DNA from: Escherichia coli
Lineage (GTDB): Bacteria > Pseudomonadota > Gammaproteobacteria > Enterobacterales > Enterobacteriaceae
NCBI RefSeq assembly: GCF_003334785.1
Contig: NZ_QOWV01000010.1
Strand: one strand, 5' to 3'
DNA length: 64,000 nt
The notes beneath the pieces are model-generated. The model had not been told where the DNA came from. It ran no database searches and saw only the letters and a list, made by a program, of their open reading frames with translations. Positions 32,675 to 36,103 of this stretch are shown here, in pieces; position 1 is the first letter of the stretch; each line of letters starts with the position of its first letter. Made by a program: the position numbers and the translations under genes.

Positions 32675-33213
32675 TGAACCCGCCAATTAATTTTTTGCCC
32701 TGGCGACAGCAACGCCGGACCGCTTTTCTGCGTTTCTGGTTGCTGATGTTCGTTGCGCCTCTGCTGCTGGCCGTCGGGATAACGCTAATACTGCGTCTGA
32801 CAGGCAGCGCCGAAGCGCGCATAGACGCAGTTTTGCTTCAGGCGGAACAACAACTCGCCCGCAGCTTACAGATAACGAAGCCACGTTTGCTGGAGCAACA
32901 GCAGTTACGCGAACAGCGTTCGCAACGGCAGCGCCAGCGACAATTTACCCGCGACTGGCAATCTGCGCTGGAAGCACTGGCGGCGCTTTTACCCGAGCAC
33001 GCCTGGCTGACAACGATAAGCTGGCAGCAGGGAACGCTGGAGATCAAGGGGCTGACAACAAGCATTACCGCGTTAAACGCACTAGAAACGTCACTCCGCC
33101 AGGATGCATCTTTTCATCTCAATCAGCGGGGAGCCACGCAGCAGGATGCGCAGGGACGCTGGCAATTTGAGTATCAGTTAACAAGGAAGGTTAGCGATGA
33201 ACATGTTCTTTGA
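32674..33213 (+). CDS. hofN: PilN-like protein HofN
   Basis: 179-aa ORF, start overlaps hofM stop. Confidence 0.88.
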   Translation: MNPPINFLPWRQQRRTAFLRFWLLMFVAPLLLAVGITLILRLTGSAEARIDAVLLQAEQQLARSLQITKPRLLEQQQLREQRSQRQRQRQFTRDWQSALEALAALLPEHAWLTTISWQQGTLEIKGLTTSITALNALETSLRQDASFHLNQRGATQQDAQGRWQFEYQLTRKVSDEHVL

Positions 33214-33637
33214 CTGGTGGTTCGCCACATCACCCCGCCTCCGCCAGCTTTGCTGGGCATTCTGGTTGCTGATGTTAGTTACGCTCATTTTTCTGTCATC
33301 GACACACCATGAAGAGCGCGACGCATTAATTCGACTACGGGCAAGTCATCACCAGCAGTGGGCCGCACTGTATCGCCTGGTAGACACCACTCCCTTCAGC
33401 GAGGAAAAAACGCTGCCCTTTTCGCCACTGGATTTTCAGTTATCCGGCGCGCAACTGGTTTCCTGGCATCCATCCGCGCAGGGAGGCGAGTTGGCGTTGA
33501 AAACGCTGTGGGAAGCAGTGCCGTCGGCATTTACACGGCTGGCAGAGCGCAACGTCAGCGTGAGCCGTTTTTCGTTAAGCGTGGAAGGTGATGATCTTTT
33601 GTTCACGCTACAACTGGAGACGCCGCATGAGGGTTAA
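33197..33637 (+). CDS. hofO: PilO-like protein HofO
   Basis: 146-aa ORF overlapping hofN end by 17 nt. Confidence 0.85.
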   Translation: MNMFFDWWFATSPRLRQLCWAFWLLMLVTLIFLSSTHHEERDALIRLRASHHQQWAALYRLVDTTPFSEEKTLPFSPLDFQLSGAQLVSWHPSAQGGELALKTLWEAVPSAFTRLAERNVSVSRFSLSVEGDDLLFTLQLETPHEG

Positions 33638-34031
33638 ACGCTGGTTGTTGGCAGGTATTGCATTGTGCCTTTTAACCGGTATGCGTGACCCTTTTAAACC
33701 GCCGGAAGATCTATGCCGGATTAGCGAACTTAGCCAGTGGCGCTATCAGGGGATGGTAGGGCGAGGCGAGCGCATCATCGGTGTAATAAAAGACGGGCAA
33801 AAGAAATGGCGACGGGTGCAGCAAAACGATGTGCTGGAAAACGGCTGGACAATTTTACAGCTGACGCCAGACGTACTAACGCTGGGTACCGGGACAAACT
33901 GCGAACCGCCACAATGGTTGTGGCAACGGCAAGGAGATACAAATGAAGCAATGGATAGCCGCACTACTGTTGATGCTGATACCCGGCGTACAGGCGGCAA
34001 AGCCGCAAAAAGTGACGCTGATGGTGGATGA
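33627..34031 (+). CDS. hofP: PilP-like protein HofP
   Basis: Start MRVKRWLLAGIALCLL (signal-peptide-like), 134 aa; overlaps hofO end and first 89 nt of hofQ. Confidence 0.8.
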   Translation: MRVKRWLLAGIALCLLTGMRDPFKPPEDLCRISELSQWRYQGMVGRGERIIGVIKDGQKKWRRVQQNDVLENGWTILQLTPDVLTLGTGTNCEPPQWLWQRQGDTNEAMDSRTTVDADTRRTGGKAAKSDADGG

Positions 34032-35181
34032 CGTTCCGGTAGCTCAGGTGTTGCAGGCGCTGGCTGAACAGGAGAAGTTGAACCTGGTCGTGTCGCCAGA
34101 CGTCAGCGGTACGGTGTCGTTACATCTAACAGATGTTCCCTGGAAGCAGGCACTACAAACTGTAGTGAAAAGCGCCGGACTGATAACGCGGCAGGAAGGC
34201 AACATTCTCTCAGTGCATTCCATTGCCTGGCAGAATAACAATATCGCCCGCCAGGAGGCGGAGCAGGCGCGGGCGCAGGCAAATCTGCCGCTGGAAAATC
34301 GCAGTATAACCCTGCAATACGCCGACGCGGGAGAACTGGCGAAAGCGGGGGAGAAGCTACTGAGTGCCAAAGGGAGTATGACCGTCGATAAACGCACCAA
34401 TCGCCTTTTGCTACGAGATAACAAAACGGCGTTAAGCGCGCTTGAACAGTGGGTAGCGCAAATGGATCTGCCGGTCGGGCAGGTTGAGCTGTCGGCGCAT
34501 ATTGTCACCATTAATGAAAAAAGTTTGCGTGAGTTAGGCGTGAAATGGACGCTGGCCGATGCGCAACACGCTGGTGGCGTTGGGCAAGTCACCACGCTTG
34601 GTAGCGACCTCTCCGTAGCGACGGCGACAACGCATGTCGGTTTTAACATTGGGCGCATCAACGGACGCTTGCTGGATCTTGAGCTTTCCGCGCTCGAACA
34701 AAAACAGCAGCTGGATATTATCGCCAGTCCGCGTCTGCTGGCCTCACATCTTCAGCCTGCCAGCATTAAACAGGGGAGCGAAATTCCATATCAGGTTTCC
34801 AGCGGGGAAAGTGGCGCGACGTCGGTGGAATTTAAAGAGGCCGTCCTGGGGATGGAGGTCACGCCCACGGTGTTACAAAAAGGTCGCATCCGGCTGAAAT
34901 TACACATCAGCCAGAACGTTCCGGGGCAGGTGCTACAGCAGGCCGATGGCGAAGTGCTGGCGATTGATAAGCAGGAGATCGAAACGCAGGTCGAGGTCAA
35001 AAGCGGAGAAACGTTGGCGCTGGGCGGCATTTTTACCCGTAAAAATAAATCGGGTCAGGATAGCGTACCGTTGCTTGGCGACATTCCCTGGTTCGGGCAA
35101 TTATTTCGTCATGACGGAAAAGAAGATGAACGACGCGAGTTAGTGGTGTTTATCACGCCACGACTGGTTTCCAGTGAGTAA
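33943..35181 (+). CDS. hofQ: Secretin HofQ (PilQ/ComE-like outer-membrane channel)
   Basis: 412-aa ORF with N-terminal signal peptide; secretin C-terminal region. Confidence 0.92.
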   Translation: MKQWIAALLLMLIPGVQAAKPQKVTLMVDDVPVAQVLQALAEQEKLNLVVSPDVSGTVSLHLTDVPWKQALQTVVKSAGLITRQEGNILSVHSIAWQNNNIARQEAEQARAQANLPLENRSITLQYADAGELAKAGEKLLSAKGSMTVDKRTNRLLLRDNKTALSALEQWVAQMDLPVGQVELSAHIVTINEKSLRELGVKWTLADAQHAGGVGQVTTLGSDLSVATATTHVGFNIGRINGRLLDLELSALEQKQQLDIIASPRLLASHLQPASIKQGSEIPYQVSSGESGATSVEFKEAVLGMEVTPTVLQKGRIRLKLHISQNVPGQVLQQADGEVLAIDKQEIETQVEVKSGETLALGGIFTRKNKSGQDSVPLLGDIPWFGQLFRHDGKEDERRELVVFITPRLVSSE

Positions 35182-35581
35182 ACAGCCGTAAAAGCGGTAA
35201 TGTTTTTACGCTGAACGTGTTTCATCTATTTGACGCGCGCAGGTATTTAGCATACAAGGAGTACCGATTTGAGAGTTGGTGCTCTTCGCTGCCTGCGTTC
35301 CATGATGATGATTTATCATTCAGGCGGCATTTTGCTGTCTTTTTTACGCTAATCTTACCCGGTGATTTATCGCCAGAGCGGTGGTAGCAAGGCAGCGCGC
35401 TTGCAGCGACCAGATATGCAGAGGGATGGGTGATTTATTCAGTTGCCAAACCCGCTGGAGTATTGAGATAATTTTCAGTCTGACTCTCGCAATATCTTAT
35501 GAGGTTTCAGTTCATGTCCTGCGGCGCTCTCTGAGCGAAGCGGGTTTATCATTAACGAATAGTCTTAGTAGTACCGAAAAA

Positions 35582-36103
35582 ATGGCAGAGAAACGCAATA
35601 TCTTTCTGGTTGGGCCTATGGGTGCCGGAAAAAGCACTATTGGGCGCCAGTTAGCTCAACAACTCAATATGGAATTTTACGATTCCGATCAAGAGATTGA
35701 GAAACGAACCGGAGCTGATGTGGGCTGGGTTTTCGATTTAGAAGGCGAAGAAGGCTTCCGCGATCGCGAAGAAAAGGTCATCAATGAGTTGACCGAGAAA
35801 CAGGGTATTGTGCTGGCTACTGGCGGCGGCTCTGTGAAATCCCGTGAAACGCGTAACCGTCTTTCCGCTCGTGGCGTTGTCGTTTATCTTGAAACGACCA
35901 TCGAAAAGCAACTTGCACGCACGCAGCGTGATAAAAAACGCCCGTTGCTGCACGTTGAAACACCGCCGCGTGAAGTTCTGGAAGCGTTGGCCAATGAACG
36001 CAATCCGCTGTATGAAGAGATTGCCGACGTGACCATTCGTACTGATGATCAAAGCGCTAAAGTGGTTGCAAACCAGATTATTCACATGCTGGAAAGCAAC
36101 TAA
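35582..36103 (+). CDS. aroK: Shikimate kinase I
   Basis: Conserved start [21 protein letters not shown] (P-loop), 173 aa; longest ORF extends 67 codons upstream. Confidence 0.95.

Follow-up and report, generated by a model that had tools for sequence, protein, structure and literature searches.

An 89-nucleotide out-of-frame overlap between hofP and hofQ in Escherichia coli and the composition of the overprinted HofP tail

The Escherichia coli genes hofP and hofQ, which belong to the HofMNOPQ DNA-uptake machine, share 89 nucleotides (nt) that are read in two different frames. We analysed this junction in a 64,000-nt stretch of an E. coli contig (NZ_QOWV01000010.1, assembly GCF_003334785.1; hereafter the window), in which mrcA on the minus strand is followed by hofM-hofN-hofO-hofP-hofQ on the plus strand and then by aroK-aroB. 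Considered jointly, the results make it likely that the overlap is genuine dual coding and not an annotation error, with a HofP tail that is translated and constrained in its composition, and with a hofQ gene that is initiated independently. The overlap is already present in the reference annotation but has apparently not been analysed before; literature searches for hofP/hofQ and for hofMNOPQ turned up no account of it.

Extent and conservation of the overlap

An earlier note on this DNA, made from the sequence and a list of its open reading frames (ORFs), had described an unusually long hofP/hofQ overlap at positions 33943-34031, and both the ORFs and the RefSeq coordinates agree with it (Table 1). 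The hofQ frame lies at +1 relative to hofP. On the hofP side, the shared stretch comprises 29 sense codons and the stop; on the hofQ side, it comprises the codons of an 18-residue signal peptide and of the first 11-12 mature residues. The note had placed the overlap on the signal-peptide region of hofQ, which is correct for the signal peptide itself but leaves out the mature residues. The same two coding sequences (CDSs) with the same 89-nt overlap are annotated by RefSeq and the Prokaryotic Genome Annotation Pipeline (PGAP) in strains that are 100% and 96.9% identical, and the hofP/hofQ region was found in 5,424 of 5,426 complete E. coli genomes.

This arrangement is common to almost all Enterobacteriaceae. 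Roughly 360 loci were found and 80 genome loci were collected, of which 78 species-level Enterobacteriaceae loci were compared and 75 were used for stop placement and tail composition. In L036, L047, L018 and L010 the automatic procedure set the start of hofQ a few codons away from its proper place, which leaves the frame-based counts unaffected. The hofP frame has the +1 offset, and both frames are open, in 76 of the 78 loci. The overlap measures 89 nt in 34 loci, 92 nt in nine, 86 nt in eight, 80 nt in four and 83 nt in three. The longest classes are 98 nt (two loci), 122 nt (two) and 140 nt (one), and the shorter ones 62 nt (five), 38 nt (three), 4 nt in the form ATGA (two) and 59, 68 and 77 nt (one each). 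Distant relatives, whose HofQ is 50-60% identical, have overlaps of about 74-77 nt once the start is set before the signal peptide. Both ORFs are thus open over the shared stretch and have lengths typical of their orthologues, with 133-137 amino acids (aa) for HofP in Escherichia, Salmonella and Citrobacter and 409-415 aa for HofQ. Furthermore, 74 loci have 43, 46 or 55 nt, all of the form 3n+1, between the invariant Cys92 codon of hofP and the start of hofQ, and the two ATGA loci have 44 nt.

The position of the hofP stop was compared with a null model made of synonymous shuffles of hofQ with gene-wide codon usage. The stop falls at a Val-Asp-Asp/Glu site of HofQ in 63 of the 75 loci, giving overlaps of about 80-98 nt, where 34 would be expected from the shuffles; nine stops lie before this site (26.9 expected) and three after it (14 expected). 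When the loci are weighted by lineage (34), the values are 25.7 at the site, 7.0 earlier and 1.3 later, against 15.2, 12.4 and 6.4 expected. The possibility, raised in the earlier note, that hofP ends earlier in other strains is therefore not supported, since these 63 loci end at the same site.

Some loci depart from the common layout. In a few Enterobacteriaceae lineages, represented by the loci L050 and L052 and the database proteins P0203 and P0210, the spacer is one base longer, HofP ends in ...REGARK or ...REGAKK, and the junction is a canonical ATGA. In the representative genome of E. albertii (NBRC 107761, L005), hofP is cut short by a stop after some 33 codons, which lies 214 nt before hofQ begins, and there is no overlap; hofQ is intact with 97% identity, and hofP is possibly a pseudogene there. 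In Citrobacter koseri NCTC10786 (L040), HofQ is matched only from residue 76, with no start in frame with the upstream part, and hofQ may be disrupted or frameshifted in that assembly.

Table 1. Features of the hofP/hofQ junction (positions of the window)
Feature	Position	Strand	Description
hofP CDS	33627..34031	+	ATG 33627, TGA 34029-34031, 134 aa; RefSeq; Pfam PF10748
HofP folded core, residues about 30-100	33714..33926	+	PilP / GspC-HR-like beta fold (AlphaFold2, Foldseek); Cys30, Cys92
hofQ Shine-Dalgarno site AAGGAG	33931..33936	+	6-nt spacer to ATG; inside hofP codons for the conserved R-Q/E-G motif
hofQ CDS	33943..35181	+	ATG 33943, 412 aa; outer-membrane secretin / DNA uptake porin; NF007851, TIGR02515
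hofQ signal-peptide codons, MKQWIAALLLMLIPGVQA	33943..33996	+	from translation; predicted cleavage after VQA by the -3/-1 rule, read by eye
Overlap (probable dual coding)	33943..34031	+	89 nt; hofQ codons 1-30; hofP codons 106-134 plus stop, -1 frame
Internal ATG, HofQ Met11	33973..33975	+	false start in gene callers; would give a 59-nt overlap
A5 run in the overlap	34007..34011	+	in some database entries, loss of 1 nt here or of G34005 joins the HofP frame to mature HofQ
hofP stop TGA	34029..34031	+	last base of hofQ Asp29 (GAT) and first two of Asp30 (GAC); start of HofQ N0

Composition and ending of the HofP tail

HofP matches the Pfam family PF10748 over residues 3-134 (model positions 1-132 of 132, E 3.7e-80). 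AlphaFold2, run with a 45-sequence alignment, predicts residues 30-100 with a predicted local distance difference test score (pLDDT) above 90, the last strand being formed by residues 96-100. In Foldseek searches this core was matched with probability 1.00 to the PilP structures 3jc8_Pa, 2ivw, 2y4x and 2lc4, and the GspC HR domain 3oss_C was matched as well; these PilP and HR domains are binders of the secretin N0 domain. The family match and the PilP-type beta fold identify HofP as the PilP-like, secretin-binding component of the HofMNOPQ DNA-uptake / type IV pilus-like machine. Among 45 family members Cys30, Cys92 and the R20-P22-F23 residues are invariant, and the two cysteines probably form a disulfide in the periplasm, as is expected of such proteins. 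Residues 101-134, on the other hand, have pLDDT values of 45-64 and no secondary structure. Since the overlap begins at codon 106, it encodes only this tail, which is predicted to be disordered and of which 29 residues are shared with hofQ. A HofP variant of E. coli (P0001, 161 aa) carries a 27-residue insertion that partly duplicates PEDLCRISELSQW.

What exceeds chance at this junction is conservation across taxa and composition, not the open frame of any single sequence. In the translated tails of the 75 loci, cysteine, the aromatic residues, leucine and early stops are depleted relative to the shuffles and lysine is enriched (Table 2). These biases are absent from the control, the -1 frame of the hofQ body, and in the remaining alternative frame of this 5′ region stops are not depleted (294 found against 252.5 expected). 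Cysteine codons do occur in the hofP frame, but only downstream of premature stops (L045, L048 and L053). With a single locus per lineage, 32 of 34 tails are free of cysteine, for which the probability at each locus is 0.34 (P = 2e-13), and 22 of 34 are free of cysteine, aromatics and early stops together, against 0.07 per locus. Shared ancestry alone is not enough to account for the bias, because 4-fold sites differ by 0.53-0.66 between genera. The hofQ frame is itself constrained, with a ratio of nonsynonymous to synonymous differences (pN/pS) of 0.49-0.58 in the overlap and a third-position entropy that tracks this frame. Selection is thus detected in both frames, in hofQ through pN/pS and in hofP through composition and stops. 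As the biases have to be imposed through hofQ synonymous sites, the tail would be translated and visible to selection; on the evidence of these comparisons, the HofP tail is almost certainly translated and constrained in composition.

Table 2. Codons in the hofP frame over the tails of 75 loci, with the expectation from synonymous shuffles of hofQ
Class	Observed	Expected	Ratio in the hofQ-body -1 frame
Cys	0	84.9	0.88
Tyr	6	43.7	1.05
Trp	2	8.4	0.88
Phe	8	25.7	1.5
Leu (TTR)	3	10.6	0.99 (all Leu)
Leu (CTN)	21	47.8	0.99 (all Leu)
Early stop	9	31.7	1.09
Ser (TCN)	63	83.3 (tolerated, 0.76)	0.79 (all Ser)
Lys	136	43.3 (3-fold excess)	1.32

A generic avoidance of T/U at hofQ third positions, acting on the RNA or by mutation, was considered as a source of these biases and rejected on three counts. 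Ser(TCN) is found at 0.76 of expectation and cysteine at 0 of 85, so that the bias goes by amino acid and not by base. Leu(CTN), which does not begin with T, is depleted too. Lastly, other 5′ or hydrophobic segments of the same loci have third-position T ratios of 0.95-1.81. At 4-fold sites of the overlap that cannot create a stop, T is found 45 times against 149.5 expected (ratio 0.30), whereas the control ratios are 1.39 for the hofP signal peptide, 1.01 and 0.95 for the transmembrane segments of hofN and hofO, and 1.58, 1.81 and 1.29 for the 5′ ends of hofM, aroB and aroK.

The place where the hofP frame ends follows largely from the HofQ protein. A hofP-frame stop is possible only where a T-ending hofQ codon precedes AAN, AGN or GAN. 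A hydrophobic signal peptide contains few combinations of this kind, and the hydrophobic codons of the hofQ signal peptide in the window are unable to form stops in the hofP frame. The first stop is therefore normally the TGA within GAT-GAC (Asp29-Asp30), a part of the conserved V-D-D-V-P motif which opens the HofQ N0 domain. In E. coli no hofP-frame stop occurs before 34029, and the frame crosses the hofQ Shine-Dalgarno (SD) site, the ATG and the signal-peptide codons; as there is no stop after the PilP-like domain, ribosomes on hofP must run on to 34031. When E. coli hofQ is shuffled synonymously, the stop comes at exactly 89 nt in 50% of the shuffles, earlier in 25% and later in 25%, which means that the -1 frame remains open over 89 nt or more in 75%, given the HofQ protein and its codon usage. 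The open-frame length in one genome was consequently rejected as evidence of selection, since the shuffles yield the same median. The Asp29 codon is GAT in 71 of 77 loci, a T fraction of 0.92 compared with a maximum of 0.73 over 36 comparable body columns and with 0.47-0.82 in six other conserved Asp columns; this preference is suggestive, but we do not accept it as proof of a selected stop.

The strongest competitor of dual coding with a constrained tail is passive, neutral read-through, in which the overlap is real, the tail is functionless and dictated by hofQ, and the hofP frame is unselected. In most loci the simulated overlaps have the observed length as their median (mean P(sim>=obs) 0.58), the 89-nt length in a single genome is what the composition of the HofQ protein predicts by chance, and a neutral compositional model of overlap length agrees with this single-genome result (Sabath et al. 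2008, PMC2542354). The predicted disorder of the tail would fit as well. We nevertheless regard neutral read-through as unlikely: it does not account for the depletion of cysteine, aromatics, leucine and stops or the enrichment of lysine, which are not seen in control frames or control genes, nor for cysteine codons restricted to positions after premature stops, nor for a stop placement more uniform than that of the shuffles.

Several observations weigh against dual coding under selection, and some of them speak directly for neutrality. The pN/pS of the hofP frame in the overlap is 0.97-2.7, at or above 1 and close to the 2.2-5.2 of off-frame controls, and the tails cannot be aligned between genera. 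Tail-less and shortened variants occur naturally: HofP is tail-less with a 4-nt ATGA overlap in two lineages of metagenome-assembled genomes (MAGs; L050 and L052), a distant relative (L087) has a 108-aa HofP with a TAG 1 nt before the ATG, and the overlap is reduced to 38 nt in Phytobacter/Kosakonia and to 59-62 nt in Raoultella and others. The full tail is hence dispensable in at least some lineages. The composition null rests on gene-wide codon usage with a crude lineage correction and is not a phylogenetic dual-frame model. In addition, expression of the hof operon, which depends on CRP/Sxy, is poor in laboratory culture. Over hofQ codons 2-29, synonymous divergence is 0.36-0.74 of that in the gene body; we do not take this as a signal of dual coding, as the 5′ ends of hofM, aroB and aroK are similar.

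The suspicion in the earlier note that the HofP C-terminus is poorly conserved is accordingly right for the sequence, by pN/pS and pLDDT alike, but wrong for the presence, length and composition of the tail, which are conserved. The comparison of the two frames across enterobacteria, which it had proposed as a check, gives a divided answer in the same way, with both frames open almost throughout and the hofP-frame sequence unconserved.

As to what the tail does, the depletion of early stops and the excess of lysine favour some positive role, while the existence of lineages without a tail speaks against its being essential. The role that we favour would depend on length and charge, beside the HofQ N0 domain and the DNA path; the tail may also be merely detoxified as an unavoidable appendage. 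Only tentatively do we propose a functional tail, lysine-enriched, cysteine-free and disordered, which would be under selection for length, charge and residues through hofQ synonymous sites and in which the tail or the passage of the ribosome might aid HofP-HofQ assembly, stoichiometry or DNA handling.

The hofQ start, the hofP end and translation of the pair

Evidence for the annotated hofQ start comes from several directions. Judged by eye, the N-terminus of HofQ, MKQWIAALLLMLIPGVQA followed by AKPQK, is a typical predicted signal peptide, and an equivalent peptide with n-, h- and c-regions was found in all loci. The NCBIfam HofQ model NF007851 matches positions 1-412 of 412 (E 6.6e-258) and the PilQ model TIGR02515 matches too, while the N0 domains of solved secretins align with HofQ only from residues 22-27, directly after the signal peptide, those of the PilQ relatives in the PDB from residue 22-23. 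HofQ is thus a PilQ-family secretin with an N-terminal signal peptide. Across the 78 loci the homologous start is ATG in 75 and GTG in three, and in 71 it is preceded by an SD core that is 4 nt long or longer. In E. coli the SD site and the AUG are unpaired in both the minimum free energy (MFE) and the centroid fold, and the structure is no stronger than that of shuffles (z -0.44). On the same grounds, an RNA structure that hides the hofQ ribosome-binding site until hofP is translated was rejected. A search of the hofP/hofQ junction for a known RNA family (Rfam) or an internal promoter found none. The hofQ SD site lies within 33928-33936, the codons of the conserved R-Q/E-G motif of HofP, and the conservation of this motif may therefore partly reflect the ribosome-binding site.

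The earlier note had suspected that one of the two starts may be mis-assigned. For hofQ, the true start would then be Met11 (33973), Val24 or Met27 (34021), leaving an overlap of 59 nt or less. Many of the HofQ proteins predicted in public metagenome or Logan assemblies do begin at Met11 (MLIPGVQAAKPQ...) or equivalent codons (P0077, P0079, P0081, P0084-P0086, P0088, P0089, P0093, P0096-P0098, P0106 and P0172), the secretin starts of the distant relatives L085 and L086 are truncated likewise, and most same-strand overlaps above 60 bp have been traced to 5′ extensions of the downstream gene (Palleja et al., PMC2478687). However, Prodigal hard-codes a maximum same-strand overlap of 60 bp (PMC2848648), a cap that the 59-nt overlap from Met11 just passes; it accounts for the Met11 calls and for the many HofQ predictions that lack the first ten residues of the signal peptide. 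A start at Met11 or Met27 would remove the n-region and h-region, and it is rejected because the secretin would lose the signal peptide which it needs. The internal methionine is not conserved, in contrast to the upstream ATG and SD site across the 78 loci, and the curated HofQ model is aligned from residue 1. A later hofQ start is very improbable on these data.

We give slightly less credence still to a shorter hofP, whose functional end would lie near the hofQ start and whose long C-terminus would result from a frameshift, a sequencing error or decay. Such a layout exists in the lineages with ATGA (L050 and L052) or with TAG before the ATG (L087), and the premature stop in E. albertii hofP points the same way. 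Yet the same frame and stop recur across E. coli, Salmonella, Citrobacter, Enterobacter and Klebsiella loci, indels between the HofP core and the ATG keep the 3n+1 phase in all but the two loci at 44 nt, and the tail shows frame-specific selection. Neither the hofP nor the hofQ boundary is mis-assigned.

Programmed +1 frameshifting into a HofP-HofQ fusion can be practically discounted: database entries of this kind exist (P0004 and P0043, which read ...GGKAAKVTLMVDD..., and P0075, a 517-aa protein from a cluster of 29 members which reads ...GGKAQKVTLMVDD...), joined within the overlap at or near the A5 run, but they are accounted for by 1-nt DNA deletions or assembly errors, the hofP frame contains no canonical slippery or stall motif or heptamer, there is no conserved stimulatory RNA structure and no Rfam match, other genera do not share the A5 run, and the stretch does not qualify as a programmed frameshift site. 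The three entries could be real mutants or assembly errors.

With both boundaries in place, the question is how hofQ is translated. Coupling by termination-reinitiation needs a stop within a few nt of the start (-4, -1, up to about +6), and reinitiation is almost abolished by a separation of about 20 nt (Huber et al. 2023, PMC10666635). Counted from the first base of the hofQ start, the hofP stop ends 89 nt downstream, far beyond this distance, and the remark in the earlier note that so long an overlap is unusual for translational coupling is well founded. Independent initiation of hofQ is consequently the most likely mode, rather than termination-reinitiation. Under dual coding, ribosomes on hofP, reading in the -1 frame, would cross the SD site, the start codon and the signal-peptide codons of hofQ and end at 34031, and hofQ would be translated by de novo initiation driven by its own SD site. 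Selection would keep the tail hydrophilic, free of cysteine and of roughly constant length, acting through hofQ synonymous sites.

Relation to known overlaps and neighbouring features

In a survey of 715 co-directional overlaps above 60 bp none was judged real, and the longest real co-directional case, holD-rimI, is below 60 bp (Palleja et al. 2008, PMC2478687). The hofP/hofQ pair is absent from the supplementary lists of that study. It does not belong to the artefact classes defined there (5′ extension, 3′ extension by frameshift, fragmented gene), since both genes have lengths typical of their orthologues and no fragments were found. With orthologue lengths and conserved boundaries as the yardstick, hofP/hofQ counts as a genuine exception. 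It resembles the overlaps of that survey in being a co-directional operon pair, conserved among orthologues, in which the upstream ORF runs to the first off-frame stop, and in having a length that a compositional model accounts for (PMC2542354). It differs in exceeding the 60-bp limit, in overprinting a signal peptide, and in that selection bears on composition and not on sequence.

Comparison with the short -4/-1 overlaps (PMC10666635) gives a similar mixture. As in these, hofP and hofQ lie in one operon and encode partners of one envelope complex, but the hofP stop lies 89 nt beyond the start, and hofQ has its own strong and unstructured SD site. The canonical ATGA form is nevertheless present in two MAG lineages. 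The pilP-pilQ pairs of type IVa pilus and competence systems share the gene order, with a PilP-like HofP core and a PilQ-family HofQ. Unlike PilP, HofP belongs to a small divergent family (PF10748, 91 representatives), and the disordered tail within the secretin signal sequence is an enterobacterial feature which the 108-aa relative L087 lacks. Overprinting in phages and viruses offers a further parallel, as one stretch is read in two frames of which one is constrained in sequence, and the overprinted product is disordered and compositionally biased; in contrast, the hofP/hofQ case is chromosomal and bacterial, spans 29 codons, and forms the C-terminal extension of an old gene.

The rule that a same-strand overlap of more than 60 bp is always a mis-annotation thus has a well-supported counter-example in this pair, and in the bacterium with the best annotation. 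If the tail is indeed functional, E. coli K-12 would hold a bona fide same-strand overlap well beyond the supposed 60-bp limit. Its persistence has a simple explanation: a hydrophobic signal peptide is nearly stop-free in the -1 frame and yields there a hydrophilic sequence rich in Gly, Ala, Arg and Asp. The case also illustrates that selection can act on the composition of a short overprinted tail which looks unconserved by identity or pN/pS. The relevance for research on overlapping genes and genome annotation is moderate, and for the little-studied Hof DNA-uptake machine the C-terminal extension of HofP is a lead that can be tested by mutation.

The hof operon is tightly packed throughout. 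The remaining junctions overlap too, by 1 nt between hofM and hofN (32674), 17 nt between hofN and hofO (33197-33213) and 11 nt between hofO and hofP (33627-33637). Downstream, hofQ and aroK are 400 nt apart (35182-35581). Two hairpins in this gap resemble terminators (35185-35198 and 35322-35340), a site at 35443-35472 resembles a promoter (TTGCCA-18-GATAAT, with TG), and an Rfam search of the gap gave no match. The aroK gene has an unusual 5′ end (codons 1-29 at 35582-35668): over codons 2-29 the synonymous divergence (pS) is practically nil, at 0.000 in both Escherichia and Enterobacter and 0.011 in Citrobacter, compared with 0.04-0.18 in the gene body, a synonymous constraint much stronger than at the other gene starts in the same loci.

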